The notes under the pieces: model-generated
What the model was told of the DNA's origin: nothing
Databases searched by the model: none
What the model saw: only the letters and a program-made list of their open reading frames with translations
In this document: in pieces, positions 1 to 56,201 of the stretch
Position numbering within the stretch: position 1 is the first letter of the stretch
How the letters are laid out: each line of letters opens with the position of its first letter
Translations under genes and position numbers: made by a program
Source of the DNA: Escherichia coli
GTDB taxonomy: Bacteria > Pseudomonadota > Gammaproteobacteria > Enterobacterales > Enterobacteriaceae
Strand: one strand, 5' to 3'
Assembly (NCBI RefSeq): GCF_050320075.1
Contig: NZ_CP190018.1
Length of the DNA stretch: 64,000 nucleotides

Positions 1-2
1 AT

Positions 3-155
3 AACGTTAAGGGCGTTGCAGAGGGTTCTAAGGCCATCAGAATCACAACGGACCAACTGGAACTACTCAAAGCACAGTCCGCAGTAGCAGGTTGCTCAAT
101 GATTCAGGTGTTAAGCGCAAAGGTCCATCAATTAGCGGATAGGCTGGGGGTTTAA
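3..155 (+). CDS. 3' end of an unknown ORF running in from upstream of the window (partial, about 50 codons visible)
   Basis: Open frame from position 3 with no stop until TAA at 153-155; that stop overlaps the ATG at 155 of the next ORF (TAATG). Not in the ORF track because it has no start inside the window. Confidence 0.3.
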   Translation, partial: NVKGVAEGSKAIRITTDQLELLKAQSAVAGCSMIQVLSAKVHQLADRLGV

Positions 156-580
156 TGCTATGCACATTTGATTATCATGCGTTTTATCGCCATAGAGGCC
201 ACCTTGTCCGTGAGAATAGCGGAACATGGAAAGATTTAACTCGTAATGCTGAACCCTTCACACACCAGCAATTAAAATCCCGCTTCTCCAGATGGAAGAA
301 TGCACCAGCAGATACTGGTGATTTTGAGATTATCCATACCTTCGATTATGCCTCAGAAGATGACCTTCACGATGCAATTAAGCTGATTGAAGACTTCAAT
401 ACCTCAGAAGATGTGGATGGTGACAAATATAAATCCCGTGGTAACCGCTATAACCGTGATGATATCACTCAGGCCATAAATGCTGGTCAATCTCAGCGAT
501 ACATTACAGAAAAATATGGTATTTCACGGAGACAGTATTTCTACGTTAAATCATTGATTAATAAAGACAATTCAAAATAA
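155..580 (+). CDS. hypothetical protein, 141 aa, with a C-terminal helix-turn-helix-like segment
   Basis: ORF-track ORF; ATG overlaps the upstream stop (TAATG); C-terminal stretch DDITQAINAGQSQRYITEKYGISRRQYFYV resembles a DNA-binding HTH; AT-rich codon usage like the rest of the element. Confidence 0.5.
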   Translation: MLCTFDYHAFYRHRGHLVRENSGTWKDLTRNAEPFTHQQLKSRFSRWKNAPADTGDFEIIHTFDYASEDDLHDAIKLIEDFNTSEDVDGDKYKSRGNRYNRDDITQAINAGQSQRYITEKYGISRRQYFYVKSLINKDNSK

Positions 581-717
581 CCATCTCAGTAACGGTAGAA
601 TGCACTTTACAGGCAGAGTTGCACCTTAATTTGATAAATTACCTTACCAGCCAGTGCAACTCCCTCTGTAACCCGCATGATTACTGGTCTCAGAATGGCT
701 ATTTTAAGAGGTCTGAG

Positions 718-1065
718 ATGTGTTTTGTAGGAGATTTAAAAATGAACAACTTCCCATTACAGATTTTCGTTGATAACGACACCGCTATGATGGTGCAAAG
801 CTTCAGTGATGCAGGTATTAGCATTGATTTTGACAGGCTGTTAAAGCTAATGGCTGATAATGAAGAAAACGTCTCTGACTTTATTCACTCGGTGGAGTTT
901 AACGAGCCTCGAATGATGTTACCAATTACAGACAGTAATATGAAAAGATTGGTTATTGAGCAAACGAACAAATACAGTATTTCCCCAGAGCAATTTTTGA
1001 AAGGTGCTGTGACAATCCTGTACAGCGATAATATTTTGGTTACGGATTCCGTGAGGGTTCACTAA
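718..1065 (+). CDS. hypothetical protein, about 115 aa (alternative start at 742)
   Basis: ORF-track ORF 619..1065 begins at a TTG; a better start is ATG 718 preceded by AAGAGG (706-711), or ATG 742 preceded by GGAG. No recognisable motif. Confidence 0.45.
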   Translation: MCFVGDLKMNNFPLQIFVDNDTAMMVQSFSDAGISIDFDRLLKLMADNEENVSDFIHSVEFNEPRMMLPITDSNMKRLVIEQTNKYSISPEQFLKGAVTILYSDNILVTDSVRVH

Positions 1066-1142
1066 TGGGCTTAATAATTGCTTGGACGTTGCTTGGCTTA
1101 TTTGTTGGTTGCTGGGTAGGCAGCACAGTAAATAGAAATTGA
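1065..1142 (+). CDS. candidate 25-aa hydrophobic micro-protein (MGLIIAWTLLGLFVGCWVGSTVNRN)
   Basis: ATG at 1065-1067 overlaps the TAA stop of the preceding ORF (TAATG); a single predicted transmembrane stretch followed by a polar tail; too short to appear in the ORF track. Confidence 0.3.
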   Translation: MGLIIAWTLLGLFVGCWVGSTVNRN

Positions 1143-1166
1143 TGTTACCAATCTGTTAAAAAGCTG

Positions 1167-1195
1167 TTGACAAATAACCTTAAGCATGAGATGAT
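1167..1195 (+). promoter_or_regulatory. sigma70-like promoter candidate (TTGACA, 17-bp spacer, TGn-GATGAT)
   Basis: Perfect -35 hexamer TTGACA at 1167-1172, 17-bp spacer, TG at 1187-1188 and a weak -10 GATGAT at 1190-1195; followed immediately by a short GAGAG/CTCTC hairpin and a T-run. Confidence 0.35.
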
Positions 1196-1359
1196 GGTAA
1201 TAGGGGAGAGCAACTCTCTCTTATTTTTCTTTCAAAATAATCCGATGGATGGATATTCTGAATTGGAAAGGTGCAATGCTTTTCGTCATGGCCTTTCAGT
1301 TTAGTCTGAGAGGCTATCTCAAAAAGTGCTTAATCATTCATTGAACCCTTTACAGCTTT

Positions 1360-1388
1360 GCCCTAACTCATGATTAGGGCTTTCTTTA
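1360..1388 (+). terminator. intrinsic-terminator-like hairpin (GCCCTAA / TTAGGGC) followed by TTTCTTT
   Basis: Perfect 7-bp inverted repeat at 1360-1366 and 1374-1380 with a 7-nt loop, then a U-rich tract. Confidence 0.4.
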
Positions 1389-1636
1389 AGAGTTTTTAAA
1401 CAGAGCTTTTAAAGAAAGTTTTTCCTGAAACTTCGTTAACGTTAAAGCAAACCTTCAAAGCCCTTCACAGATGAGGATGATTCCATGAATATCCGAATCA
1501 CCTATGTTTAGGGCTTTTTTCAGCTTTTAAAAAGCATACTTGGCAAACGCCTTTTAAGCCTCTTCTAAGTTCGAGGATGTCAGGTGTGCTTTTTAAAAAC
1601 TGAAACATAAATTATCTTAGAAGAGGAAAGGTATTA

Positions 1637-2341
1637 ATGGCTATCCGTGATGAAAATGAAATGATTATTGAAAACAAACCAAGTGCACTTGATATTCACG
1701 AATTAAGTTTGCGTGAATCTTTTGATAGAGCTTGGCGGGAATCACACGAAGTAAATAAAGGTCCATATATTCCACCAGAACCACTCGAGATTCCAAGAGT
1801 TGAAATTGATTTTTCTATGAACGAACGGTGTGAACTTGATTTGAAGTTGAAGCTACAACGCCGATATTTCCAAGCTATTAAAGACTCTCAAGAAGCAATG
1901 AGAAGTGTTTATGAGAAAATTCAGTCCAAGCTTGAAGACGAAATTGACGAAATGGCTATTTTGATGGAGCTTCAAACCAATCCTTATGCTTATTTCTCTC
2001 GACTAGACCGTGACGGTTGGGGGTATGACCCTGTAGAGATTGGTAAAGTGATTGCAGATTTACCAGAAGGTCAAAGGGTTATTCGTACGGAAAGGGCCAT
2101 CAGAGCGCCACATCAACTGTCTCTAATTGTTGCTGATAAATCACAAGCTGAGCTTGAAGAAATTGCCAAAGAGAAACTGATGAAAGCAAGAGAAAATGAG
2201 ATTAATTTGCTGAAATCAAGACTGGCTAAGCTGATTAGTGACCATCAAGCGCTGGCTAAGGAGTACCGTCAAGAGTTGGCACAGATTATCAGCTTCAATG
2301 ATTTTCTGAGTGTTCCACGAGAATTTAGCAAGGCTGTTTGA
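1637..2341 (+). CDS. hypothetical acidic protein, 234 aa
   Basis: Strong RBS (AGAGGAAAGG) 7 nt upstream of the ATG; glutamate- and lysine-rich with an apparently helical C-terminal half; no motif recognised. Confidence 0.6.
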   Translation: MAIRDENEMIIENKPSALDIHELSLRESFDRAWRESHEVNKGPYIPPEPLEIPRVEIDFSMNERCELDLKLKLQRRYFQAIKDSQEAMRSVYEKIQSKLEDEIDEMAILMELQTNPYAYFSRLDRDGWGYDPVEIGKVIADLPEGQRVIRTERAIRAPHQLSLIVADKSQAELEEIAKEKLMKARENEINLLKSRLAKLISDHQALAKEYRQELAQIISFNDFLSVPREFSKAV

Positions 2342-2364
2342 TTATGAATTAAAAGAGGTGATTA

Positions 2365-2583
2365 ATGTATGAAGACCGTTTGGAAACTATCAAGGCAGTT
2401 TGTGAAAAACTTAAAAACCAACCACGTAAACCAAAAACGGTAAAGAGTAAGCATCAGCCTGTCACCTCAAACAGCAAAATAAAGATTCGCAAAATTCCTT
2501 CGTGGTGCATTGACCGTATTCCGGTTGGTTCAAGAATTATTCGTGAAGATGGTGATTATCATTGGGTATCAGTTGTTGGTTAG
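2365..2583 (+). CDS. hypothetical small basic protein, 72 aa
   Basis: RBS AAAGAGGTGA upstream of the ATG; lysine/arginine-rich; followed by an intrinsic terminator. Confidence 0.5.
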   Translation: MYEDRLETIKAVCEKLKNQPRKPKTVKSKHQPVTSNSKIKIRKIPSWCIDRIPVGSRIIREDGDYHWVSVVG

Positions 2584-2598
2584 TTAGTAAAAATCTAC

Positions 2599-2638
2599 GG
2601 GAGAGATTATCGAGTGATATCGGTAGCTCTCCCTTTTT
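2599..2638 (+). terminator. rho-independent terminator
   Basis: GGGAGAG (2599-2605) pairs with CTCTCCC (2627-2633), followed by TTTTT. Confidence 0.55.
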
Positions 2639-2671
2639 CGTATATGAACACTTAAGAGGTGAAAAATATGA

Positions 2672-4804
2672 ATGAGCAAATTCACAGTTGATAGTTTTAT
2701 CGTTGAATTAAGCTTCAATGAAAACATTATTAAGGGCTTGCAAAGAGTTGAAAAGGCAGCTTTGCAGTCAGCACAAAGAATTGAAAAGAACCTAAATAAA
2801 GGTTTCAGGATTAATACAAAGCAGCTTGATAGTAATTTAACGGCTTCTTTAGGGCAGCTTGAAAGGAAGTTTAATAAGGCCTTTGACAAGATTGAACAGA
2901 GAGCAAGAAATACTAAAGCTTTCCAGTTTACCACCAGATTTAATGACACTGTTAATCCTCCAAAACAACCGAGACAGCCACGAATTAGCGGCAACAGAGC
3001 AATCACAGCAGCTTACTCAGCGAATATGAGCAAGCTAAAAGGCTTTGACCCTATTTTGCAGAAATACATCAAATCTCAGTTTTACGGGCTATCTGCTAAA
3101 GCCGGTTCAATGGATTCTTCAAAATTCAATGAGAAGTTAGCTCAGTTAAACGCTTCAGTCAGAGAAGCAATTGCTAAAGCCAGAGGTCATACATCCACCA
3201 GCATTAATGGTGACAGAGCAGCTAATAGTCTTGATAACCTGTCTTCAGCAGCAGTTAAAACAGCAGGTGCATTTATCTCAATGCAGGCTGTATTAGCCAG
3301 TTATCAGAAGATTATGGAAATTGGTTTACAGCGTGCAAGTGCTGAACGTTCAATTGATTTCGTATTTGATAAAGATGCAGGTCAAGTAAAAGAGTTCACA
3401 AAGTCATTAGCTCAAACAACGGGTTTAGATATCGCTGAACTGCAATCACAGTTTGCTGGTTTTGGTGCTTCAGCTAAAGAGTCTATGGGCATTCAAGGTT
3501 CTGAAGAACTTTTTAAAAATATGATTGGCTATGCTCGTCTGATGGGGAGAAGTGAAGAAGAGATTAAGCGAGCACTGACAGCATTATCACAGATGGCTGG
3601 TAAGGGTCAGGTTATGGCTGAAGAGCTTAAGGGGCAATTAGCTGAAGCTGTTCCTGGTATGGTTCAGGTATTCGCTAAAGCAACCGGAAGGAATGAACAA
3701 GAGCTATTTGATGCCATGAAGAAGGGGGCTTTAAAATCTGCCGATACTCTTCAGAAGGTCACTCAGGAACTGAATAAACAAATCACCGCTAAAGGTGGCT
3801 GGAAAGCTATTTCAGAAAGTACACAGGCACAACTAGGGAACCTGAAAAACTCTTGGAATACCACGCTTGATAGTATCTTCAGAGGTTCTGAAGATGGTCT
3901 GCAAGATTTTACAAGAAGCTTAACAACGCTTTTAAACGCTCTTGGTGGAAGTGGTAAAAGTCTTGGTGAATCTCTTGGTAGTCTCATGACTTCTATGTCA
4001 CATGGTGTCGATTCATTGACTGATATCAGCTACAGGGTAAGAGCATTCTTCGATGAGGTGACATTAGCTTACCGTTCACTAAATGACACTCAGAAAAAAA
4101 TTGTTGATGGTTTATCTGATGGGTTAATTGATGGTTTGAAGATGCTTGCCGTAGCTGTTACTGCTCAAAAGGCTGCAAATGTAGCTGGAGGCTTGTTAAA
4201 CCTTGCAAATGCTGTTACTTCATTCGGTGATGCTGTTAATAAAGCTAAAGCTGGCAAGGCTGGTTCTTCAGGTGGTGCGCTAAATAAAGTTGGTAGAGTT
4301 GTTCTTTATGCTGAGTTGGTGAACTTTGCTCTTGATAATTTAAACCCTGAAGCGGCTAAGAATCCGAACTTACACCAATCAGGTATTGGAACAGAGACAA
4401 ACTTCAACCCTGAATACAAAGGCGATTCATCTAAACCAAACCAAATTAATGATGGATGGGCTAAGATTGGTAGTTCTATCGCTGACTGGTTTAATGGTGC
4501 GGCTAATAAAATTGCTAACTTCCAAGACCCGATGAATAACTTTGTTAATAACACACAATCAACTCCACCAGCTATCACAGGTGACATGGTTAATAGCAAT
4601 GCTCAACTTGCTATGGCTGTATCAGAGTTAGGAAGAAAGGTAGACGCTTTAACAGTAGAAGCTAAGAAGCCTTTATCAGTTAATATCAAAGGTGAAGCAA
4701 TTGTTAGACCGGATGAACCAGCTTTCTTTACTTTCAATCAATCAGCTAATGACCAGTTCACGCAGGATATGCTCTTAAGTTCAAGCTATCCAGAGGAAGA
4801 ATGA
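2672..4804 (+). CDS. phage tail tape-measure-domain protein (TMP-like), 710 aa
   Basis: RBS AAGAGGTG upstream; helical, alanine/glycine/lysine-rich; the segment ALTALSQMAGKGQVMAEELKGQLAEAVPGMVQVFAKATGRNEQELFDAMKKGALKSADTLQKV matches, from memory, the conserved core of phage tape-measure proteins. Confidence 0.6.
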   Translation: MSKFTVDSFIVELSFNENIIKGLQRVEKAALQSAQRIEKNLNKGFRINTKQLDSNLTASLGQLERKFNKAFDKIEQRARNTKAFQFTTRFNDTVNPPKQPRQPRISGNRAITAAYSANMSKLKGFDPILQKYIKSQFYGLSAKAGSMDSSKFNEKLAQLNASVREAIAKARGHTSTSINGDRAANSLDNLSSAAVKTAGAFISMQAVLASYQKIMEIGLQRASAERSIDFVFDKDAGQVKEFTKSLAQTTGLDIAELQSQFAGFGASAKESMGIQGSEELFKNMIGYARLMGRSEEEIKRALTALSQMAGKGQVMAEELKGQLAEAVPGMVQVFAKATGRNEQELFDAMKKGALKSADTLQKVTQELNKQITAKGGWKAISESTQAQLGNLKNSWNTTLDSIFRGSEDGLQDFTRSLTTLLNALGGSGKSLGESLGSLMTSMSHGVDSLTDISYRVRAFFDEVTLAYRSLNDTQKKIVDGLSDGLIDGLKMLAVAVTAQKAANVAGGLLNLANAVTSFGDAVNKAKAGKAGSSGGALNKVGRVVLYAELVNFALDNLNPEAAKNPNLHQSGIGTETNFNPEYKGDSSKPNQINDGWAKIGSSIADWFNGAANKIANFQDPMNNFVNNTQSTPPAITGDMVNSNAQLAMAVSELGRKVDALTVEAKKPLSVNIKGEAIVRPDEPAFFTFNQSANDQFTQDMLLSSSYPEEE

Positions 4805-4967
4805 TTTCTTATATATCCGTGTGCTACGTGATTTCTTCTGAACAGATATACCCACTAAAAATTATTTTTTACGTAGCTCACGCTTAACAGAGAAAATACT
4901 TATATATCAAAGGCTTGGTTAAAAATGATTAAAATACACTAAGCCTTTGAAATCAAAGGAGAATTTA

Positions 4968-5741
4968 ATGATTTACTCTAATCAGATTCGTTACAGTGGT
5001 AAAGATGGCGTTTACTTTCATCTACAAGGCCAGCCAGATAATTTCTTGTCACTATCAGCTACTGAGAACATGGAATTTGACAGCCCTATGATGGTTACCA
5101 CTCAAAATATGCAATCAGGGCAGACTGTCACAGATAATGTAATGCGTTCACCCAGAACTATTTCAATCAGTGGTGTGGTTGTAGTTGGTGAATCCGGTAG
5201 TATCCTTATCTCAAGAGATAATAAGCTGGTGGAAAACTTCATAGACACTCTTGAAAACTGGCGTGACCAGAAGCAAATTATCTCAGTTGTCTGTAAAGAT
5301 GGTATTAAGATTGACGACTCAATTATTACAAACTTTAAAGCCTCTAAAGATGTTGGTATTGCCAATGGTCTTAGAATCCAATTAACTTTTCAGGAAATTA
5401 ACTTTAAAGCTATTGTGGGTCAGACTGATATCTCGGCTGCGACCGGAAGGACTTCTACCACAAGTGATGGTGGTGCTACCAGTAAAAAGAATACAGGGAA
5501 CACTACGACAAGCTTAGGTAACGGTATGTTGATGTGTCAGGAGCTATATAATCGCTCTACGAGTGAACTTACTAATGAGCAACTTCAAGCCCGTATCAAT
5601 TGTGGTAAAAATGTCAGAGTTAAGAACGGAAAAAGCACCTTCTCAGATGCCGCTAATGAGCAAGCTTCAAAGGTGCTTAATAATGCTGGTACAGGTAGTA
5701 CTTTGAAGAAGTATTCTGTTAATCCTAACAAGCGATACTGA
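4968..5741 (+). CDS. hypothetical protein, 257 aa; possibly a distal-tail-like protein, judged only by position after the tape-measure gene
   Basis: ORF-track ORF 4947..5741 begins at a TTG; preferred start is ATG 4968 preceded by AAGGAG. The N-terminal half looks beta-strand-rich and the C-terminal half is Ser/Thr/Gly/Asn-rich. Confidence 0.5.
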
Positions 5742-5755
5742 CGATAGAATCTCAA

Positions 5756-7279
5756 CTATATGATAACCTCATCAACATCTATTAAACCCCTCTCAGTGAC
5801 TTCAGAAAGCGACTGTATAGCCTCTGTAACGTTGTCTGAGGGGTTTTCTGTTATTGGTAAGGTGATTGCTTTACCGTTGTGAAAAGTTACTTTACAGCGA
5901 CGTTTAGCAGTATTTAAAACGACCTCTTTAACAGCACTTTTGATTATCAGTTGTGCTTCAATCCTTCCCGCCTTTGTAGTCAAGTCACAATCAGACAAAC
6001 AACCCACATCAATAGATTTAAGGCGTTGTGTCTCCTTCTCGATATCCGCATCAACTTGTGATAGCTCATTCTTTAGTTGTCTTAGTTTGCTGGTAATAGC
6101 GGACAAGTCTTCAATTTCAAGTGATAGCTGTACCAGCTTTTCAATATTGCTTGAGATGTGTTCACGGTGTAGCTTCAGTGTGTCTATGGTATTCGTCATA
6201 TCGCTATCAAATCGGTCAAGACGAGATAGCAGGGCAAGCAATGTACCATCGGTTTGCTTACGTGAAAGTCCTTTAGCACTACAACGGTTTTCATTACGAA
6301 GAGGACAACGATAAATCCCGTTTCTTGTATCGCTAAAGCCTGTGATAATCAAAGCATGACCACATTCAGAACAACGGATAACACCTTTGAAAAGATTCAC
6401 AGCCATTGGCTTATCTGAAGCAGGTTTTCTACCGTAACGAGCATATGATAGTTGTTGAACTTTGTAGAATGTTGTTTCATCTATAATTGCAGGATAATAA
6501 CCAGATATCTCCTCACAGCCTTTAGGTGTGAAGTAACCAATTACAGAGCGATTCTTCAAAAGGTCTTGCACTGAGGTTTGACCAAACTTACCTGCTTTGT
6601 ACTGGTTAAGCGTCTGGTGACCTTCAGCATTAAGAGTTCTGACAATCTCCCAGATAGACTTACCCTCTAACCGTAGCTGAAAGCACCTCTTCACAGTCTC
6701 CACTTTCTCAGGTATCACAGAGAAGCTTTTACGGTCATCATTAAGCTTAAGCCATGCAGGACAACGCCTAGAAATCTTGATACCAGCTTTAGCAGCTTCT
6801 TTCTTTGCATCCCATGCAGCTTGTATACGCTCAGCCTTACGTAATGATTCCTCATGCGCCCTTTGCATTATCAAAATGCTTTTAATCAGAGCTAACGGGT
6901 CTTTAAGAGATTCCCTTGTGTAATGTTCACCATCGGACAGGGTGACTACATCTACACCAGAGCGAAGAATGTTTCTGAGTAGCTCACTTGCTTGGTCTAC
7001 GTCCTGACGTGAGAGACGGTCTAAACTCTCGATTAGTAGTGTATCACCAGCTTTAACAAGCCCTTTCTCGATAGCGGTTAAAAAGTCACCTAAGCCACCT
7101 TTCAAGTGCTTACCAGTGAACCCGCTAACGCCTAAATCACGAAAAGTAAGGGATTCATCCAGATAGTACTCAGGATGAGCCTTAAGCCAATCAGTGACCA
7201 TCTTAGCCTGTCGTCTTAATGAGTCGCCTCTGGATTGCTTCTCAGATGAAAACCGGATGTAACTGATTGCACGTTTCAT
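5756..7279 (-). CDS. large serine recombinase (phage-type serine integrase), 507 aa
   Basis: N-terminal resolvase-type catalytic domain (ISYIRFSSEKQSRGDSL...LLIESLDRLSRQ), a central recombinase region, a cysteine-rich zinc-ribbon-like motif (CSECGHALIITG...YRCPLRNENRCSAKG) and a coiled-coil C-terminus; convergent with the cargo genes and adjacent to the host junction. Confidence 0.85.
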   Translation of the reverse strand: MKRAISYIRFSSEKQSRGDSLRRQAKMVTDWLKAHPEYYLDESLTFRDLGVSGFTGKHLKGGLGDFLTAIEKGLVKAGDTLLIESLDRLSRQDVDQASELLRNILRSGVDVVTLSDGEHYTRESLKDPLALIKSILIMQRAHEESLRKAERIQAAWDAKKEAAKAGIKISRRCPAWLKLNDDRKSFSVIPEKVETVKRCFQLRLEGKSIWEIVRTLNAEGHQTLNQYKAGKFGQTSVQDLLKNRSVIGYFTPKGCEEISGYYPAIIDETTFYKVQQLSYARYGRKPASDKPMAVNLFKGVIRCSECGHALIITGFSDTRNGIYRCPLRNENRCSAKGLSRKQTDGTLLALLSRLDRFDSDMTNTIDTLKLHREHISSNIEKLVQLSLEIEDLSAITSKLRQLKNELSQVDADIEKETQRLKSIDVGCLSDCDLTTKAGRIEAQLIIKSAVKEVVLNTAKRRCKVTFHNGKAITLPITENPSDNVTEAIQSLSEVTERGLIDVDEVII

Positions 7280-7346
7280 TGTTCACCTCACCAATAGCAG
7301 TTGGGCTTGTACCAACCCCTAGATTGTATCGCTTTAGATGGTGTAT

Positions 7347-7841
7347 TTAAACGTGTCTAATAAAAATCACCCGATTAACGCCGCGCTGATGTAAACCGCG
7401 ATTAAGCGTTTGTTCCTCTTCCCCTTTGGCGAAAAACTGTGGATGGCGGACTTCCACACCATAATTAAATTCGCCGGGAAGGGAATCGAGAAAATGCCAA
7501 AGCGCAGGCAGATCCCGTGGGCCAAATGTGGCAGGCAGTTGCAGCCAGTATTGCCCAATGCGCGGCGCTAACGGTGACATGCGGGTCAAAAATTCAGTCA
7601 CTAAATCATCGCAATGCCGTAATGCTGCCTGATGCGAAATGGTCGCCGGAAACTTAAAACAGAAGCGAAAATTATCTGTGGTCTGCTCACGCCAGCGCAG
7701 GACAACCTCGGATTTCGGCAGGGCGTAAAGCGTGGTGTTGCCCTCCACACAGTTAAAGTGGCGGGCATACTCTTCAAGGCTGGTGATCCCCAACCGCACC
7801 CATTTAGGATGCGACCATTGCGGCAGACCGATGTAAATCAT
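7347..7841 (-). pseudogene. yecE: yecE (DUF72 family), 5' portion only: reading frame interrupted by the insertion
   Basis: N-terminus [29 protein letters not shown] matches recalled YecE; the frame stops after 164 codons (intact YecE is about 272 aa from memory) exactly where GC-rich host sequence changes to the AT-rich element. Confidence 0.7.
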
Positions 7842-8404
7842 AATGCGTTGAGGATCTCTTCCACACTGCGCACACGGGCGATGCGTGGGTAGATATGGTT
7901 GATGCTGTTATTGTGCTGCTCGGCGCTGGCGGCGCTGCAGGCGTCTTCGGCAATCACCAGATTAAAACCGAGTTCCCAGGCATTGCGGGCGGTGGATTCA
8001 ACACCGATATTGGTCGAGATCCCACATAATACTATTGTATCGATACCCCGGCGGCGTAATTGCAACTCCAGATCTGTACCGTAAAACGCCCCCCACTGAC
8101 GTTTGATGATTTCGATATCACTGTCAGTTGCACCTAATGCAGCAGGATGTTGCCACCAGTTTTCGGGCAACACTTTAGCGGGGGAAGGGGCATCAACCGG
8201 CTGTTTTAATGCTTCGGCGTAATCGGCAGACCAGCCAACGCGCACCAGAAACACGGGCTGACCGCTGGCGCGAAATTTCACCGCCAGCTTCCCGGCGCGA
8301 TTAACCACCTCATCGGCAGTATGTGGACCTCCGGCAAAAGGTAAGATGCCTTCTTGTAAATCAATCACCACCAGCGCGGTGGTTTTAGCATTAAGTTCAA
8401 GCAT
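7838..8404 (-). CDS. yecD: isochorismatase-family hydrolase YecD
   Basis: [23 protein letters not shown]...; ORF-track ORF trimmed to the internal Met that gives a 188-aa product. Confidence 0.85.
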
Positions 8405-8713
8405 GATGACTCCTGACAAAACAAAATCGTGCCTCTCACCTTAATGCGATTAGCCGATGGCGGAACGACAAATTTTGTTAATTTTTATGAGTTCGGGCAA
8501 CACCTTTATAGCAAACTGGCGTAGAGTCTGATTTCAGGCCCGATATAAAGTGGTAACGAGGCGTTCCAGCGCGGGCCAGACTCTTACGGTGCGGCAGAAT
8601 TTCCAGTATAATAGCCGCCTTTTTTCATTCAGTTGTGACATACAGCTAACGCTGCGACTTGGTCACCTGCGCAGCAGGGGGCATCCGCCGGCAGCTAAGT
8701 TAAGGGATATCTC

Positions 8714-10486
8714 ATGCGTACAGAATATTGTGGACAGCTCCGTTTGTCCCACGTGGGGCAGCAGGTGACTCTGTGTGGTTGGGTCAACCGTCGTCGTGAT
8801 CTTGGTAGCCTGATCTTCATCGATATGCGCGACCGCGAAGGTATCGTGCAGGTATTTTTCGATCCGGATCGTGCGGACGCGTTAAAGCTGGCCTCTGAAC
8901 TGCGTAATGAGTTCTGCATTCAGGTCACGGGCACCGTACGTGCGCGTGACGAAAAAAATATTAACCGCGATATGGCGACTGGCGAAATCGAAGTACTGGC
9001 GTCCTCGCTGACTATCATCAACCGTGCAGATGTTCTGCCGCTTGACTCTAACCACGTCAACACCGAAGAAGCGCGTCTGAAATACCGCTACCTCGACCTG
9101 CGTCGCCCGGAAATGGCTCAGCGCCTGAAAACCCGCGCTAAAATCACCAGCCTGGTGCGCCGTTTTATGGATGACCACGGCTTCCTCGACATCGAAACTC
9201 CGATGCTGACCAAAGCCACGCCGGAAGGCGCGCGTGACTACCTGGTGCCTTCTCGTGTGCACAAAGGTAAATTCTACGCACTGCCGCAATCCCCACAGTT
9301 GTTCAAACAGCTGCTGATGATGTCCGGCTTTGACCGTTACTATCAGATCGTTAAATGCTTCCGTGACGAAGACCTGCGCGCTGATCGTCAGCCTGAATTT
9401 ACTCAGATCGATGTGGAAACTTCTTTCATGACCGCGCCGCAAGTGCGTGAAGTGATGGAAGCGCTGGTGCGTCATCTGTGGCTGGAAGTGAAGGGCGTGG
9501 ATCTGGGCGATTTCCCGATAATGACCTTTGCGGAAGCAGAACGCCGTTATGGTTCTGATAAACCGGATCTGCGTAACCCGATGGAACTGACTGACGTTGC
9601 CGATCTGCTGAAATCTGTTGAATTTGCAGTATTTGCAGGTCCGGCGAACAATCCGAAAGGGCGCGTTGCCGCTCTGCGTGTTCCGGGTGGCGCATCGCTG
9701 ACCCGTAAGCAGATCGACGAATACGGTAACTTCGTTAAAATCTACGGCGCGAAAGGTCTGGCTTACATCAAAGTTAACGAACGCGCGAAAGGTCTGGAAG
9801 GTATCAACAGCCCGGTAGCGAAGTTCCTTAATGCAGAAATCATCGAAGCCATCCTGGATCGTACTGCCGCGCAAGATGGCGATATGATTTTCTTCGGTGC
9901 CGACAACAAGAAAATTGTTGCCGACGCGATGGGCGCACTGCGCCTGAAAGTGGGTAAAGACCTTGGTCTGACCGACGAAAGCAAATGGGCACCGCTGTGG
10001 GTTATCGATTTCCCGATGTTTGAAGACGACGGTGAAGGCGGCCTGACGGCAATGCACCATCCGTTCACCTCACCGAAAGACATGACTGCTGCAGAACTGA
10101 AAGCTGCACCAGAAAATGCGGTGGCGAACGCTTACGATATGGTCATCAATGGTTACGAAGTGGGCGGTGGTTCTGTGCGTATCCATAATGGTGATATGCA
10201 GCAGACGGTGTTTGGTATTCTGGGTATCAACGAAGAGGAACAGCGCGAGAAATTCGGCTTCCTGCTCGACGCCCTGAAATACGGTACTCCGCCGCACGCA
10301 GGTCTGGCATTCGGTCTTGACCGTCTGACGATGCTGCTGACCGGCACCGACAATATCCGTGACGTTATCGCCTTCCCGAAAACCACGGCGGCGGCGTGTC
10401 TGATGACTGAAGCACCGAGCTTTGCTAACCCGACTGCACTGGCTGAGCTGAGCATTCAGGTTGTGAAGAAGGCAGAGAATAACTGA
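8714..10486 (+). CDS. aspS: aspartate--tRNA ligase
   Basis: 590-aa ORF with class II aminoacyl-tRNA synthetase motifs ([28 protein letters not shown]). Confidence 0.95.
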
Positions 10487-13259: not shown

Positions 13260-13871
13260 GTGATAGGCAGACTCAGAGGCATCATCATTGAAAAACAACC
13301 CCCGCTGGTGTTAATTGAAGTGGGCGGCGTAGGCTATGAAGTGCATATGCCGATGACCTGTTTTTATGAACTCCCTGAAGCGGGTCAGGAAGCGATCGTT
13401 TTCACCCACTTTGTGGTGCGTGAAGACGCGCAACTGCTGTACGGTTTTAACAATAAACAAGAGCGCACATTGTTCAAAGAGTTGATCAAAACCAACGGCG
13501 TCGGCCCGAAGTTAGCGCTGGCGATCCTCTCCGGAATGTCAGCGCAGCAGTTCGTTAATGCCGTTGAGCGTGAAGAAGTGGGGGCACTGGTGAAACTGCC
13601 GGGTATTGGCAAAAAAACCGCCGAACGCTTGATTGTTGAAATGAAAGACCGATTTAAAGGTTTGCATGGCGATCTCTTTACGCCAGCCGCCGACCTGGTA
13701 CTCACGTCTCCTGCCAGCCCGGCGACCGACGATGCTGAACAAGAAGCGGTTGCCGCGCTGGTGGCGCTGGGCTATAAACCACAAGAAGCAAGCCGCATGG
13801 TGAGCAAAATCGCTCGCCCTGACGCCAGCAGTGAAACATTAATTCGCGAAGCCCTACGCGCCGCGTTATGA
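13260..13871 (+). CDS. ruvA: Holliday junction branch-migration complex subunit RuvA
   Basis: [28 protein letters not shown]. Confidence 0.95.
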
Positions 13872-30354: not shown

Positions 30355-31524
30355 TTAAGCCGCAACCGTCTGTGTGACGGATTTACGCTGGCCTCCATGG
30401 GCAGAAACGACGAGTCCCGCCGCTTGTAATTCCAGTATGCCCTTGCGTTTGATGTTGAGCGCCGCGTTGATATCGCGGTCATGTTCAACTCCACACTCTG
30501 GACACTGCCAGATGCGCTTATGTAATGGCATCTCCGACATTTTGTGACCGCAGCAGTGGCAGGTCTTCGAACTGGCGAACCATTGATCCAGTTTCACCAG
30601 ATGCACACCTTTCTCTGTTGCTTTGTATTCCAGTTTTGTGATGAATCCAGACCATCCAGCATCGCCTATCGCACGAGCCAGATGGTGATTTTTCATCATA
30701 TTTGCCATTTTCAATGTCTCGACAATTACCGCTTGGTTTTCGTCAACAATTGCGCGAGATAACTTGTGCTGGAAATCGGCACGGGCACCGGCTACCCGTT
30801 CGTGAACGGCTGCAAGTTGTATTCTGGCTTTGCGCCTGTTTGCGCTCCCTTTTTTCTTACGGGACAGTGCTTTCTGCTTCCGGCGCAGGTTGCGACTTGC
30901 ATTGATTAGGTGGCGGGGACTGGCAATTTTATTGCCGTCCGATTTGATGACAAAATGCGCCAGCCCCATATCCAGCCCTGTCACATTTGATATCAGTGCG
31001 GGCTTTGCCGGCGCTTCCATCCCGTCGTCACAGAGTAACGACGCGTAGTATTTCCCGGTTGCGCTGCGGCTCAACGTGATACTTTTCAGCATTCCCGTAA
31101 TTTCACGATGTAAACGCGCTTCAATCGGCAAGATTTTCGGTATTTTTATCGCAGCATCAAGGACTTTTATGCCAACACAATGGTAGCTCGATTGTCTGCC
31201 GTGTTTACTTTTAAAGGTAGGTTTACCTGCTTTCAGTTTCGGATTGAAAAAGTTAGAAAAAGCCACGTCGAGGTTAATTACCGCCTGCTGCAACGCAATA
31301 GAATCATATTCTTTAAGCCATCCATACCGGCGGGATTTCTTCGCCACTGCAAGCAGTGGTTTGAGGTCTTTACGCGGGTTTAAATTTACGCGGTGCCGCT
31401 GGTAAGAATGTTTCTTGATATGCAGAGCTTTGTTGTACGCAAAACGCACTGCACCGAACTGGGCGTTGATAAATTCAGCCTGTTCTGGTGTCGGGTAGAT
31501 GCGTACTTTTGTTGCTCTTAACAT
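30355..31524 (-). CDS. tnpB: IS200/IS605-family TnpB (OrfB; RuvC-like RNA-guided nuclease family)
   Basis: 389-aa ORF with an OrfB N-terminal HTH region, a RuvC-like core and a C-terminal zinc finger (CHCCGHKMSEMPLHKRIWQCPECGVEHDRDINAALNI). Confidence 0.85.
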   Translation of the reverse strand: MLRATKVRIYPTPEQAEFINAQFGAVRFAYNKALHIKKHSYQRHRVNLNPRKDLKPLLAVAKKSRRYGWLKEYDSIALQQAVINLDVAFSNFFNPKLKAGKPTFKSKHGRQSSYHCVGIKVLDAAIKIPKILPIEARLHREITGMLKSITLSRSATGKYYASLLCDDGMEAPAKPALISNVTGLDMGLAHFVIKSDGNKIASPRHLINASRNLRRKQKALSRKKKGSANRRKARIQLAAVHERVAGARADFQHKLSRAIVDENQAVIVETLKMANMMKNHHLARAIGDAGWSGFITKLEYKATEKGVHLVKLDQWFASSKTCHCCGHKMSEMPLHKRIWQCPECGVEHDRDINAALNIKRKGILELQAAGLVVSAHGGQRKSVTQTVAA

Positions 31525-31580
31525 AATCAGCGCTCATTGATATAATGCTTTTATTTTAACACTTTAGGTAAATATATCAA

Positions 31581-32006
31581 TTGAGTAATCATGATGATTT
31601 ACTGGCGGGATTTCTCCGCAAACGACACAGTGTCAGTAAGCTGGTTGTGCACCTTATTTTTACGACAAAGTATCGACGCAAACTATTCGACAGTCAGATG
31701 ATCGCTCAGTTGCGTGAGGCTTTTGGCTCCGCTGCGGCAAAGCTTGAATGCGAAATTATTGAGATGGACGGGGAGCCAGACCATGTACACCTGCTGGTTG
31801 CCTACCCGCCAAAACTGGCGGTCAGTGTGATGGTCAATAATTTAAAATCGGTATCATCACGTTTGCTACGCCAGCAGAACGCGCATTTACGCATGCAGAG
31901 TAAAACGGGGCTTTTGTGGTCGAGATCGTACTTTGTCTGTAGCACCGGAGAGGCAACGATTGAAACGCTCAGAGCCTACGTTCAGAGTCAGTCAACACCT
32001 GATTGA
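31581..32006 (+). CDS. tnpA: IS200/IS605-family TnpA (HuH Y1 transposase)
   Basis: 141-aa ORF with a TTG start; HuH motif HVHLLV and a catalytic-Tyr region WSRSYFVCSTG. Confidence 0.8.
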   Translation: MSNHDDLLAGFLRKRHSVSKLVVHLIFTTKYRRKLFDSQMIAQLREAFGSAAAKLECEIIEMDGEPDHVHLLVAYPPKLAVSVMVNNLKSVSSRLLRQQNAHLRMQSKTGLLWSRSYFVCSTGEATIETLRAYVQSQSTPD

Positions 32007-37295: not shown

Positions 37296-37637
37296 ATGAT
37301 GAAAAAAAGTATTCTGGCGTTTCTGTTACTCACCAGTTCTGCAGCGGCGCTGGCTGCACCGCAGGTGATTACCGTTAGCCGTTTTGAAGTGGGTAAAGAC
37401 AAATGGGCGTTTAATCGCGAAGAGGTGATGCTGACTTGCCGACCGGGTAATGCTTTGTATGTCATCAACCCAAGTACCCTCGTGCAGTATCCTTTAAACG
37501 ATATCGCACAAAAGGAAGTTGCCAGTGGGAAGACTAAAGCCCAACCCATTTCGGTGATTCAGATTGATGATCCTAACAATCCCGGCGAAAAAATGAGTCT
37601 GGCACCGTTTATAGAACGAGCTGAAAAACTCTGTTAA
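37296..37637 (+). CDS. yebY: DUF2511 protein YebY
   Basis: 113-aa ORF with a signal peptide. Confidence 0.85.
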
Positions 37638-51837: not shown

Positions 51838-52077
51838 TTAACCATTATCGACCACAATATTGCTTTTACGTAACAACGGGCAATCTGTTATCCCCAGAAA
51901 ACCACTTTTAGTGTGCAGGTATTGTACCGTGCTGGTGCCTCTGGCGGTCAGATAGGTACATTGCAAACCTAATCCCGCGGCATTCTCTTTGCTTCCAATC
52001 AAAACGCCATATCCGCTGAGTAATAATCCTATCCATACCAGTGCTATCAGCATAACTGTGCGAATGATGAATCGCAT
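51838..52077 (-). CDS. yobH: small membrane protein YobH
   Basis: 79-aa ORF with an N-terminal hydrophobic helix. Confidence 0.7.
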   Translation of the reverse strand: MRFIIRTVMLIALVWIGLLLSGYGVLIGSKENAAGLGLQCTYLTARGTSTVQYLHTKSGFLGITDCPLLRKSNIVVDNG

Positions 52078-52234
52078 TACAACCTCTTCTCTTTTTATGT
52101 TCGCTTAATCGTAGCGGCAATATGCGCTGAAGCAAGCGACTCATTCTGAAAAAGCACGAATATCGACATAGTTAGGCGCTGTTTAACTAACGCATGCTAG
52201 TTTAATGACATAAGGTAGGTGAAACGGAGATTGG

Positions 52235-52378
52235 AGTGAAAAAGTTTCGATGGGTCGTTCTGGTTGTCGTGGTGTTGGCTTGCTTGCTGCTTTGGGCGCA
52301 GGTATTCAACATGATGTGCGATCAGGATGTACAATTTTTCAGCGGAATTTGTGCCATTAACCAGTTTATCCCGTGGTG
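52235..52378 (+). CDS. mgrB: PhoQ-inhibiting small membrane protein MgrB (47 aa)
   Basis: GTG start; translation [47 protein letters not shown] matches recalled MgrB; too short for the ORF track. Confidence 0.8.
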
Positions 52379-52453
52379 ATATCATTTTTTCAGCACTAGA
52401 TTTTCTTCCTCTCCAGCAGTGGTAGAATAGCGCCTCTACTCAGAGGTGGTGAA

Positions 52454-52741
52454 ATGAACGAAGTTGTAAATTCAGGCGTGATGAACATTGCGTCTTTGGT
52501 TGTATCGGTGGTGGTTCTTTTTATCGGGCTTATCTTGTGGTTTTTTATCAATCGTGCCAGTTCACGGACTAACGAACAGATTGAACTGCTTGAGGCGTTG
52601 CTGGATCAGCAAAAACGTCAAAATGCTCTGTTACGTCGTTTGTGCGAAGCAAACGAACCTGAGAAAGCAGATAAAAAGACCGTTGAGAGTCAAAAATCGG
52701 TTGAAGACGAAGATATTATTCGTCTGGTCGCCGAACGATAA
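52454..52741 (+). CDS. yebO: small membrane protein YebO
   Basis: 95-aa ORF MNEVVNSGVMNIASLVVSVVVLFIGLILWFF. Confidence 0.8.
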   Translation: MNEVVNSGVMNIASLVVSVVVLFIGLILWFFINRASSRTNEQIELLEALLDQQKRQNALLRRLCEANEPEKADKKTVESQKSVEDEDIIRLVAER

Positions 52742-53410
52742 TCCTTCCTCAATCTTGAGTAACCCCGTCGTTGAAGGGTTACTCAATTCATCCTGATTAT
52801 ACGCACTGTCATGGTGCAACTGCTTCAAATTAAAACTCTGGTCTGACTTCAAATAATTATCATATTATTTATTTGCGTAACGGGATATCAGAAAAAGATA
52901 TTTAGCCCATTAATTTATTAGGATGTTTACATCGGATTTGTGATTAAGCGTGGTATTATTTATTAGCGAAACGTTTCTCTCTTGATTTTTTTGCGCATTC
53001 ATCAATTTTTCTTATTTTAAATTTACAATACCTTTGGCGATTGACTTCTCTTTGGGGTGATCGATAGCCGTTAACTGACTGTTTTATGAGAAAAATTGAT
53101 ATAACTTTTTATTCATTGCATAGCAGAAAATGTGATATTGCACGCACTATGTAATAACTTCTCCCACTGGCCTGGAACAACTGAACTTATTGAACTATGT
53201 TAGAAAATACGTCAGTTTAAGTATCTGCCTGAACTGGCAAGGTTAAGCACAATGATATATCGGCGCGTATTCCGTTGCATAAGTGTGCAAAAAAAGTGGA
53301 AGACGTATCGAGATTTGTGCGTCTGATCGAGACATGTTTAAAAATGGCTTGCCATAATTAACGTTGTATGTGATAACAGATTTCGGGTTAAACGAGGTAC
53401 AGTTCTGTTT

Positions 53411-53554
53411 ATGTGTGGCATTTTCAGTAAAGAAGTCCTGAGTAAACACGTTGACGTTGAATACCGCTTCTCTGCCGAGCCTTATATTGGTGCCTCATGC
53501 AGTAATGTGTCAGTTTTATCTATGTTATGCCTGCGGGCGAAGAAAACAATCTAA
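53411..53554 (+). CDS. yobF: small protein YobF (47 aa)
   Basis: [47 protein letters not shown], 13 bp upstream of cspC; too short for the ORF track. Confidence 0.75.
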
Positions 53555-53566
53555 GGAATTTTTCAA

Positions 53567-53776
53567 ATGGCAAAGATTAAAGGTCAGGTTAAGTGGTTCA
53601 ACGAGTCTAAAGGTTTTGGCTTCATTACTCCGGCTGATGGCAGCAAAGACGTGTTCGTACACTTCTCTGCAATCCAGGGTAATGGTTTCAAAACTCTGGC
53701 TGAAGGTCAGAACGTTGAGTTCGAAATTCAGGACGGTCAGAAAGGTCCGGCAGCTGTTAACGTAACAGCTATCTGA
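53567..53776 (+). CDS. cspC: cold-shock-family protein CspC
   Basis: [37 protein letters not shown]. Confidence 0.95.
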
Positions 53777-53822
53777 TCGAATCCACTGATCTGAAGTGTG
53801 AATACGCTTCAATCTCGCTATA

Positions 53823-53850
53823 AAGCCTCGTCGAATGCGAGGCTTTTTAC
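53823..53850 (+). terminator. rho-independent terminator after cspC
   Basis: AAAGCCTCG-TCGAATG-CGAGGCTTTTT. Confidence 0.6.
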
Positions 53851-53941
53851 TTTGCTTTATCTTCGCTCCAGTCGTTCGGATATTTGCCCGCCGCGTGATT
53901 CGCGTTACACTTGCGGCCTTTAGTATCCTGCCGGAGTTGTC

Positions 53942-54751
53942 ATGTCGTTTTCCTGTCCACTTTGCCATCAGCCTCTTTCGCGTGAAAAAAACAGCTATAT
54001 CTGTCCCCAGCGACATCAGTTTGATATGGCGAAAGAAGGGTATGTCAATCTGCTGCCCGTTCAGCATAAACGGTCTCGTGATCCGGGCGACAGCGCGGAA
54101 ATGATGCAAGCACGCCGCGCATTCTTAGATGCCGGACATTATCAGCCGCTGCGTGATGCAATTGTCGCTCAACTGCGGGAACGGCTTGATGAAAAGGCCA
54201 CAGCGGTGCTGGATATTGGCTGTGGTGAAGGGTATTACACACACGCATTTGCCGATGCGTTGCCCGAAATCACCACGTTTGGCCTGGATGTCTCGAAGGT
54301 AGCGATAAAAGCGGCGGCGAAACGATATCCGCAGGTCACTTTTTGTGTTGCTTCCAGCCACCGTTTGCCGTTTTCCGATACCAGTATGGACGCCATAATA
54401 CGTATTTACGCGCCGTGTAAAGCAGAAGAATTAGCGCGAGTAGTGAAGCCTGGCGGTTGGGTCATTACTGCCACGCCGGGACCGCGACATTTGATGGAGC
54501 TGAAGGGGCTGATTTACAATGAAGTACATCTTCATGCACCTCATGCAGAACAACTGGAAGGTTTTACATTACAGCAGAGTGCTGAGTTGTGTTATCCGAT
54601 GCGTCTTCGCGGTGATGAAGCCGTCGCATTATTGCAGATGACGCCGTTTGCCTGGCGTGCGAAGCCAGAAGTCTGGCAAACACTGGCAGCAAAAGAAGTG
54701 TTCGACTGCCAGACGGACTTTAATATTCACCTCTGGCAGCGTTCTTATTAA
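53942..54751 (+). CDS. rlmA: 23S rRNA m1G745 methyltransferase
   Basis: N-terminal zinc-binding Cys motif (CPLCHQPL...YICPQRH) and SAM-binding motif [11 protein letters not shown]. Confidence 0.9.
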
Positions 54752-55314
54752 CCGTGGAAGTGCGTCCAGAGGATCTGGACGCCGATGCCGATCAGCACCA
54801 GCCCGCCGAGAATTTCCGCTTTTTTCCCAATAATTGAGCCGATAAAGCGACCAACCATCATCCCTAATGTCGACATAATCAAGGTTGCACAACCAATGGC
54901 CAATGCGGTCGCGATAATGTTGACCTGAAGGAAAGCAAGACCAACACCCACAGCCATGGCATCCAGGCTGGTGGCAATCGCGGTGGTTACCAGTAGCCAG
55001 AAACCGTGTCGACGGCGCGGCTCTTCATCTTCATCATCTGCGCCACGAAAACCCTCAATAATCATTCGCCCGCCGAGGAATATCAGCAGCACAAACGCAA
55101 TCCAGTGGTTCCATTCAAGAACAAACCGGCTGGCTAACATGCCCATTCCCCAGCCGATCAGCGGCGTCAGGGTTTCGACGGCACCAAAAATAAGGCCGGT
55201 TCGCAACGCTTCAGAAAATTTCGGTTTATGGAGGGTGGCACCTTTACCGATTGATGCAGCAAATGCATCCATCGACATACCAAACGCAAGAAGAACAGTA
55301 GCAGTGATATTCAT
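54748..55314 (-). CDS. mntP: manganese efflux pump MntP
   Basis: [25 protein letters not shown]; 188 aa after trimming. Confidence 0.9.
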
Positions 55315-55329
55315 GACAACGTCCTGACC

Positions 55330-55550
55330 GGGGTATCCATAAAACACATCATCGCCCCCAGCAAACATGCATACATGAACAACAAGCCGCGATGGTTTTC
55401 GCGTTCATGCAGGCATAGCGATTGATGTGCATATGGTCTCGCCTGACTGAAAGTGTTCAGTCCGTACGTGCCACGTTTTGCAACGAGTATGTTGACACGT
55501 ACATTTCCGGAATCTGGAAATCGGCTACTCCCCAAATGAGGGCGCAACCT
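55330..55550 (-). ncRNA. yybP-ykoY-type manganese riboswitch in the mntP leader; boundaries approximate
   Basis: The long mntP 5' leader contains the conserved GGGGAGUAG element (plus-strand CTACTCCCC at 55525-55533). Confidence 0.5.
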
Positions 55551-55685
55551 TAACATATTTTGAGAATATAAAACAACTGTTGGAATATATTATTTCATTG
55601 CTTTATTGATAACGATTTTCATTTAGATTTATATATCAATGAAACGTTAAAATAAATAACAAATAAGGGAAGAGGTAATATAGCC

Positions 55686-55737
55686 TTAGCTATGTCTGAT
55701 TATTAAAAATACACTAAACATAGCTTTGGCTAAATTC
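55686..55737. promoter_or_regulatory. MntR-box-like inverted repeat upstream of mntP
   Basis: AGCTATGT (55688-55695) and ACATAGCT (55718-55725) form an inverted repeat; the AAACATAGC half-site resembles the recalled MntR operator. Confidence 0.4.
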
Positions 55738-55742
55738 ATAAC

Positions 55743-56201
55743 TTATTGAGTTGAAACGAGAAGCTTATAAATTTTTTCCAGATCGTCGATATTTCGAACG
55801 CGGATTAACAGCCGACGCTGTTCTAATTGCATCACCAACACGCCATCTTCCGACAAGTTCATCGCTTTGATTCGGCTATATTCAATCCAGACATTGGCGA
55901 AGAAAAAACCTTTTTGTTTAAAGATGATCTTCGGAACGCGGATCCAGAATATATAAAAACCCATCAGAGCCAGTGCACTTAATAACCATGTTGTTATTAG
56001 CGCGCCATGATTCGTGACGTTGTTATAGATAAGAATGACAATCAATCCGACGAAGATAACGCTATCGATGCGACCACGCCGGAGCAAAGGAATTGCCAGC
56101 AGAGTGGGGCCGTTACGGCGGGGCATGATGAACTGATCGTAGATCGCGAAGGCCAGGAGTGCGGCGATGAAAAGAATCAGTACCAGGTCCGTGATTGTCA
56201 T
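55743..56201 (-). CDS. yobD: inner-membrane protein YobD
   Basis: ORF-track ORF trimmed to [18 protein letters not shown], giving 152 aa. Confidence 0.75.

Follow-up and report, generated by a model that had tools for sequence, protein, structure and literature searches.

Escherichia coli yecE split at a probable serine-integrase attachment junction beside a 12.2-kb element with Felixounavirus-like tail genes

The yecE locus and the split gene

We analysed a stretch of 64,000 nucleotides from the Escherichia coli contig NZ_CP190018.1 (assembly GCF_050320075.1), hereafter called the window, in which the host gene yecE (DUF72) is broken off beside a gene for a large serine recombinase. An earlier note, made from the letters of the window alone, had proposed that yecE was truncated by an insertion at an integrase-proximal attachment (att) junction and had pointed to yecE as an integration site of some E. 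coli prophages. The truncation was borne out when the junction was mapped and the missing 3′ codons were located at the far end of the insert. The insert is, however, not a prophage but a non-autonomous element of 12.2 kb with 12 genes. The coordinates of its features are collected in Table 1.

Intact yecE, as found in strain Nord122, has 819 nt and encodes 272 amino acids (aa); the 164-aa reading frame in the window is not an uninterrupted allele of that length. Extended base by base, the identity to the empty site ended exactly at window position 7363, within the range of about 7360-7372 that the earlier note had given for the break. Residues 1-159 of the truncated YecE are identical to the wild type, and residues 160-164 (FIRHV) are encoded by the element and followed by the stop codon. 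The foreign ending had thus been recognised correctly, but the count of 164 codons followed by a few foreign ones had to be amended to 159 native and five element-encoded codons, 164 in total. The turn to AT-rich sequence was also recovered, as the guanine and cytosine (GC) content was 0.37-0.42 over window positions 1-7000 and 0.50-0.54 on the host side beyond, and the recombinase reading frame did start on the minus strand at 7279.

E. coli YZLc1-3 (NZ_CP123240.1) matched window positions 1-9230 without a difference, and its annotation lists the truncated yecE as a pseudogene that lacks its C-terminus. Positions in the window equal those in the YZLc1-3 locus (L002) minus 40271. The 3′ end of yecE lies outside the window because the window begins 4,870 bp inside the element. 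In YZLc1-3, the 3′ part was found directly beside yecN, at a distance of 12.2 kb leftward from the junction and at the far end of the element, where the earlier note had expected it. The insertion leaves 159 codons in the 5′ fragment that the window contains, and the other 113 codons of yecE, those of the 3′ part, lie off-window. YZLc1-3 and the window differed at two of 59,230 compared bases, window positions 13439 and 19773, both past 9230, and the window thus derives from YZLc1-3 or a very close relative.

A 701-bp probe spanning the boundary had a match in 5,425 of 5,426 complete E. coli genomes. Nearly all of these matches started at query base 164, which corresponds to window position 7363, and represent more than 5,000 empty sites. 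The whole probe, including the recombinase-proximal DNA, was matched in 265 of the 5,426 genomes, an occupancy at the yecE serine-integrase site of about 5% of complete E. coli genomes. A junction at the same base was also found in 13 further loci from genomes, metagenomes and IMG/VR (at least 12 of them independent), with recombinases 92-100% identical. Since the two halves of yecE abut perfectly save for a 7-bp duplication, and since the 13 further loci share the junction base, the split of yecE is not due to chance. Strain 20-20 (locus L003, 1-2977) has a decayed copy at this yecE junction; ISEc12, an IS21-family insertion sequence, truncates its serine recombinase.

The serine recombinase and its attachment sites

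The recombinase, of 507 aa, matched three Pfam families in canonical order, Resolvase (PF00239, 3.9e-19), Recombinase (PF07508, 3e-15) and Zn_ribbon_recom (PF13408, 7e-07), the first of them over residues 4-164 and from model position 1. It also matched the integrase family PHROG 95 (1.9e-79), and its residues 240-454 aligned with the C-terminal region of the A118 serine integrase, including the coiled coil (4kis/6dnw). The motif YIRFSSEKQ at residues 7-15, as read from the sequence, carries the expected nucleophilic serine. The resolvase catalytic domain, recombinase domain, zinc ribbon and coiled coil of a large serine recombinase are thus all present. Judged by its sequence, the 507-aa protein is a bona fide large serine recombinase, and it is presumably active. 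Among proteins it came closest to the YbcK-like recombinases of lambdoid phages, with which it shares 36% identity. The earlier note had proposed a comparison with phages that integrate into yecE; the recombinase gene had no DNA-level match among 50,697 phage records (megablast).

Extension from the empty-site flanks and from the YZLc1-3 junctions showed that the left junction is identical up to AAAATCA and the right junction from AAAATCA onwards. The bacterial site attB reads ...GGCTGTCT AAAATCA CCCGATTAAC... and the reconstructed site of the element, attP, reads ...AACGTGTCTAATA AAAATCA TCAAGGTCTAAATGC...; the corresponding stretches of about 50 bp are GGTGTATTTAAACGTGTCTAATAAAAATCATCAAGGTCTAAATGCACTAC for attP and CCGGGCGGCTGTCTAAAATCACCCGATTAACGCCGCG for attB. 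The crossover is confined to the 7 bp of AAAATCA because this is the only identity common to both junctions. The start codon of the recombinase lies 84 bp from this core, and the attP arm between them was kept, a few substitutions aside, in all yecE-type elements. Within this arm, GTGTATTTAAAC pairs as an imperfect inverted repeat with GGTCTAAATGCAC, which lies off-window in the far arm, and attP as a whole holds an imperfect dyad (13/21 positions) with its centre at the first AA of the core. The 7-bp identity and the position of attP beside the integrase gene agree with the short att sites of large serine recombinases.

We conclude, with a probability of about 0.9, that window positions 7280-7369 are the integrase-proximal recombinant junction left by the integration of a 12.2-kb circular element into yecE. 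Recombinase dimers would bind attP, just upstream of their own gene, and attB, at codons 159/160 of yecE. Staggered double-strand cuts of 2 bp at the central dinucleotide within AAAATCA would be followed by subunit rotation and religation, resulting in two hybrid junctions that split yecE. Excision would require a directionality factor. These steps are the standard chemistry of large serine recombinases. Taken alone, the att site is of an ordinary kind. Its position is now known to within 7 bp, and it adds a natural attP/attB pair together with an E. coli-native large serine integrase, a candidate tool for genome engineering.

Gene content of the element

The element has 12 protein-coding genes in its 12.2 kb, and all of these open reading frames (ORFs) are intact (Table 1). 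Six of the 12 proteins are small or have no assigned function. No head, capsid, terminase, portal, sheath, tube or lysis genes were found among them with PHROG and NCBIfam, and the tape measure and tube initiator are the sole virion genes, a set that differs from that of a temperate prophage. Lacking head, terminase, portal, sheath, tube and lysis genes, the element is not a prophage. The 322-aa protein, which has a helix-turn-helix (HTH), weakly matched the replication-initiator families PHROG 270, 428 and 678 (1e-6 to 1e-7). PADLOC and NCBIfam scans of the cargo detected nothing but the orphan Dam-like methyltransferase. A variable cargo slot adjoins the far junction.

The family-specific genes g7, g8 and g9 matched no PHROG, NCBIfam or PADLOC family. 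An AlphaFold model of the coiled-coil protein g8 (predicted local distance difference test score 71) had no significant match in PDB or BFVD. A role of g8 and g9 as tail-assembly chaperones was considered and rejected, since neither showed sequence similarity to phage chaperones or to any phage ORF.

Table 1. Features of the element and of the yecE junction, in window coordinates
Feature	Position	Strand	Remarks
Variable 306-aa protein	off-window, left 4,870 bp		element gene
Dam-like orphan methyltransferase	off-window, left 4,870 bp		element gene
322-aa Rep-like HTH protein	off-window, left 4,870 bp		element gene
g4 and the other yecE junction	off-window, left 4,870 bp		coordinates from YZLc1-3
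g5, 3′ end	1-155	+	early/accessory region; coordinates from YZLc1-3
g6, 141 aa	155-580	+	early/accessory region
g7, 107 aa	742-1065	+	family-specific core gene
Non-coding gap, 570 bp	1066-1636		between g7 and g8
g8, 234 aa, coiled coil	1637-2341	+	family-specific core gene
g9, 72 aa	2365-2583	+	family-specific core gene
Tape measure protein (TMP_3), 710 aa	2672-4804	+	PHROG 4036, 1e-79
Tail-tube initiator homologue (Pfam Dit_like PF21821), 257 aa	4968-5741	+	PHROG 3721, 5e-128
Large serine recombinase (integrase), 507 aa	5756-7279	-	Pfam, PHROG and structure matches
Element-derived attP arm, recombinase start codon to core	7280-7362		contains GTGTATTTAAAC
Crossover core AAAATCA	7363-7369		duplicated at both junctions; sole sequence common to attB and reconstructed attP
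Truncated yecE (DUF72), 5′ fragment	7347-7841	-	164 aa total; stop at 7347-7349
Second att site in yecE	7745-7770		unoccupied here; used by φP27-type prophages with a tyrosine integrase

Relation to Felix O1-type phages

In the phage collection, the gene pair encoding the tape measure and the 257-aa protein matched only virulent myoviruses of the Felixounavirus type, with about 80% nucleotide identity over the second gene. The homologues in phage VpaE1 are adjacent and in the same order; the tape measure gp113 shares 27% aa identity over its full length with that of the element, and gp112 shares 72% with the 257-aa protein. The latter also matched gp018 of phage Bas63, the “tube initiator” (PDB 9ndy, E 6e-114). 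In Bas63, the tube initiator forms a hexamer by which the six-fold tube is fitted to the trimeric hub, and the tape measure touches the hub and the puncture apparatus with its final 25 residues (PMC12609058). The tape measures of the elements retain the N-terminal ~50 residues of the phage protein and an invariant C-terminal LLSSSYPEEE, with a highly divergent middle. None of the core genes varies nearly as much as that for the tape measure, which is 40-79% identical among elements whose recombinases are >92% identical. More than 1,000 variants of the tube-initiator homologue were found in E. coli, Salmonella, Shigella and E. albertii, which is the host range of Felix O1-type phages.

Non-coding similarity was also detected. 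A short-word BLAST search of the element against the whole phage recovered a 25/25 non-coding match, extending to 68 nt at 82% identity. In the element it lies in a gene-free region ~90 nt upstream of the methyltransferase/Rep operon. In the phage, its counterpart lies between genes, upstream of the operon that runs leftward from gp043. Two more motifs are arranged in the order that they have in the 1.75-kb gene-free region of the phage. A 91-nt segment (positions 37380-37470 of the YZLc1-3 locus, ~2.8 kb to the left of window base 1) matched unannotated intergenic DNA in 253 phage records, all of them Felixounavirus-like phages (Ounavirinae) of Escherichia, Salmonella, Shigella and Citrobacter. 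The segment contains a GATATCC/GGATATC palindrome, and a scan of it for sigma-70 promoters gave nothing above background. We suggest that it is a candidate phage-responsive control element. A copied phage intergenic sequence before the methyltransferase/Rep operon would let phage infection switch the element on.

Element family, distribution and mobility

Sister elements of 11-13 kb had the conserved order g7, g8, g9, tape measure, 257-aa protein and recombinase. They were found at three integration sites. The recombinase of the sister in yecE was 93% identical to that of the window, that of the sister in mdtG 67% and that of the sister at the start codon of tonB 33%. Two metagenome assemblies each yielded a contig of the tonB-type sister (12,565 and 12,000 bp); the two contigs were 99% identical and circularly permuted. 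One of them had a 55-bp terminal overlap and joined, at attP, the sequences that flank both chromosomal junctions in VTB97585v. An excised circular or concatemeric form therefore exists for the tonB-type sister. Matches to g8 in IMG/VR were mostly provirus calls from isolate genomes and gave no evidence of packaging.

The tonB-type sister sits exactly over the tonB start codon (locus L007, 17727-17760 and 4761-4790; locus L014, 6290-6320). Its end regenerates ATGACCCTTGA, and tonB keeps its coding sequence and gains element DNA upstream. The core of this type is ~13 bp long (CAATGACCNTTGA). The copy in VTB97585v carries an inserted IS421.

A yecE-type element with a recombinase 100% identical to that of the window was present on the metagenome scaffold HAYD20-1...scaffold_724 (locus L015, 1-1227). 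At its far end, this element has another large serine recombinase gene, for a protein of 514 aa, besides a small resolvase, possibly a tandem element or cargo. The record MT836130.1 (“Bacteriophage sp.”, human faecal virome, 12,681 bp) was examined as a relative and rejected, as its terminal recombinase was 30% identical and no cargo was held in common. It may be an unrelated small integrative element in virome data.

A second attachment site in yecE and other features of the window

The earlier note had named yecE as an integration site of phages that carry Shiga toxin (Stx) genes. This is correct for the gene, which is disrupted by prophages (PMC3603311) and is the insertion site of 45-kb Stx2a phages (PMC8456039), but not for the site. 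The yecE homology to φP27-type lysogens stops at window position 7756, and the tyrosine integrase that adjoins there shares 95.8% identity with that of the Stx2e phage φP27. The gene holds two independent att sites ~390 bp apart, and in FDAARGOS_1252 (locus L005) both are occupied. The element has neither the tyrosine integrase nor the att site at the 5′ end of yecE that characterise φP27-type prophages. The description “yecE-integrated” spans two unrelated integration systems, which is relevant to PCR typing of stx-phage sites across yecE.

Elsewhere in the window, the YZLc1-3 annotation places an IS200/IS605-family element, ISEc46 (tnpA and the RNA-guided endonuclease TnpB/InsQ), at positions 30355-32006, with yebE on one side and ptrB on the other. 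The GC content dips to 0.41-0.42 at positions 52000-54000 (yobH-mgrB-yebO-yobF-cspE) and 55000-56000 (near yobD), where the annotated genes are ordinary core genes.

Nature of the element

The att junction and the element taken together are the best combined explanation of the locus, and we consider it almost as probable as the junction by itself. Several observations weigh against it. The far end of the element lies off-window and was taken from the near-identical genome YZLc1-3, and the exact version of 12.2 kb is rare, since only one or two complete genomes carry it at full length. The attP dyad is weak, that of attB is equally weak with its axis 2 bp to the left, and the two are inconsistent as to the central dinucleotide. 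An exact 32-mer spanning attP, as expected of an excised yecE-type form, had no match in IMG/VR and JGI metagenome contigs. The element showed neither a directionality factor nor a packaging signal or capsid-remodelling gene that could be recognised, its Rep-like protein has only weak HTH matches, and no phage-encoded proteins with this Rep-like domain, an Odn-type anti-satellite signature, were found.

It is extremely improbable that the window shows merely the integrase end of a complete temperate prophage, possibly a Stx-converting one. The record of yecE as a site of prophages and Stx2 phages (PMC3603311, PMC8456039) would suit such a prophage, as would the tail-gene homologues that adjoin the integrase. 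However, the halves of yecE in YZLc1-3 are only 12.2 kb apart and enclose 12 genes, with none for head, terminase, sheath, tube or lysis, which refutes a prophage for that genome. In addition, φP27-type phages use a tyrosine integrase at their separate site ~390 bp off, the recombinase gene matches no phage record, and the tail genes resemble those of the strictly virulent Felixounavirus and not those of temperate phages. A decayed, immobile remnant of a larger prophage or island, with the tail genes as leftovers, is also improbable. The rarity of the exact version, the decay of some copies (ISEc12 in the recombinase of strain 20-20, IS421 in VTB97585v) and the lack of a recognisable directionality factor are consistent with a remnant, but all 12 ORFs are intact and a sister is present as a precisely excised circle in two metagenomes. 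The termini of the tape measure are selectively conserved while its middle diversifies, and random decay would not have kept the size of 11-13 kb and the gene order constant across three recombinase specificities at three loci.

The element is a compact island that is widespread and apparently mobile, and we infer that it is a helper-dependent satellite of virulent Felixounavirus or a defence island against it. Its own tape measure and tube initiator, counterparts of the proteins that measure and nucleate the tail tube, would build tails dedicated to the satellite or would sabotage those of the helper. A recombinase and weak replication-initiator matches, with no head or lysis genes, are what is generally expected of a satellite, and a true satellite lifestyle is a tentative reading to which we give somewhat less than even odds. 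Slightly more tentative is the proposal that the element comes from an undescribed satellite family of Felix O1-type phages with interchangeable recombinases, a copied phage switch and replaced helper tail genes. No description of Felixounavirus-linked satellites was found in the literature searched, the coverage of which was not exhaustive. The element might instead be an integrative defence island that is never packaged and moves by other means, its tail proteins serving as dominant-negative decoys that poison Felixounavirus tail assembly. Phage baseplates could take up the two proteins, given the hub-contacting terminus of the tape measure and the 72% identity of the tube initiator; the 40-79% identity of tape measures between otherwise similar elements resembles an arms race, and there is a variable cargo slot beside the far junction. 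Interference with assembly by mobile elements is an established defence strategy (PMC11364771, PMC10884400). Against this, PADLOC detected no defence family besides the orphan methyltransferase, and the replication-initiator-like gene and the circular sister copies suggest amplification, which is typical of satellites. We consider a pure defence island rather unlikely. Defence and satellite lifestyles can coexist, as they do in the Vibrio PLEs. Should the element prove to be a satellite of Felixounavirus or an island that poisons its tails, the Felix O1-type phages used for typing, biocontrol and therapy against Salmonella and E. coli would be affected in their efficacy and host range.

Comparison with known systems

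The element recombinase has the domain set Resolvase/Recombinase/zinc ribbon in common with the integrases of A118, Bxb1, φC31 and TP901-1 and with the Int of the Vibrio cholerae PLE. Like known large serine integrases, it is encoded beside attP, its attP and attB share a very short identity (here 7 bp) and its target lies inside a coding sequence. It differs in being only ~36% identical to its nearest phage-borne relatives, the YbcK-like recombinases. The φP27-type prophages disrupt the same host gene, a documented hotspot for prophages and Stx phages (PMC3603311, PMC8456039). Unlike the element, which has a serine integrase acting at codon 159/160 and an insert of 12.2 kb, they are phages of ~40 kb with a tyrosine integrase and enter near codon 25-30 of yecE.

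Markers of PICI, cfPICI and P4-like satellites (alpA, pri-rep, terS or a capsid module; psu-delta-sid) had no PHROG or NCBIfam match among the cargo proteins. In the SatelliteFinder models, tail genes are forbidden components for PICI and cfPICI (PMC10085698).

By analogy, the Vibrio PLEs would be the closest functional analogue. They are likewise compact islands integrated by a large serine recombinase. Infection by a virulent myovirus, which they parasitise, activates the PLEs; they encode a replication initiator of their own, and the directionality factor comes from the helper. They differ in host and helper (ICP1) and in size (~18 kb), and a sequence relationship to the element was not evident. 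We know of no report of PLEs carrying their own tape measure and tube initiator.

The closest precedent that we found at the level of the whole element is the set of 224 putative E. coli satellites of ~13 kb predicted computationally by Barth, Nguyen & Seed 2023 (PMC10448857, lqad076). Their genes include those for an integrase, a baseplate protein, a tape measure and a RepA_N initiator, a link to Justusliebigvirus phages is described, and a subset has serine recombinases (PMC10448857). The likeness to the element lies in the size of ~13 kb, in the order of an end integrase followed by a baseplate gene, a tape measure and small ORFs, in the replication initiator (putative in the element) and in the small number of virion genes. 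The predicted satellites are linked to virulent myoviruses, as is proposed for the element, and some of them share the use of a serine recombinase. In contrast, capsid and decoration proteins and RepA_N initiators are reported for those satellites and none was detected in the element. The predicted satellites are also mostly located at tRNA-Thr, where they integrate by tyrosine integrases, and their helper is Justusliebigvirus. Their O104:H4 representative has the same layout as the element but no BLAST-detectable DNA or protein homology to it. The features that define membership in that set, at least 10 kb of BLASTn homology, RepA_N and capsid or decoration genes, were absent in the comparison with this representative. 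Small resolvases common to the element family and the representative were generic relatives with 30-46% identity. Because of the lack of homology to the representative, we treat the element as a parallel family and not as a member. If the satellite reading is true, the element would be a second, independent case of satellites with a tape measure and baseplate-proximal genes, and its family would be both a parasite of classic typing and therapy phages and a population-level defence against them.

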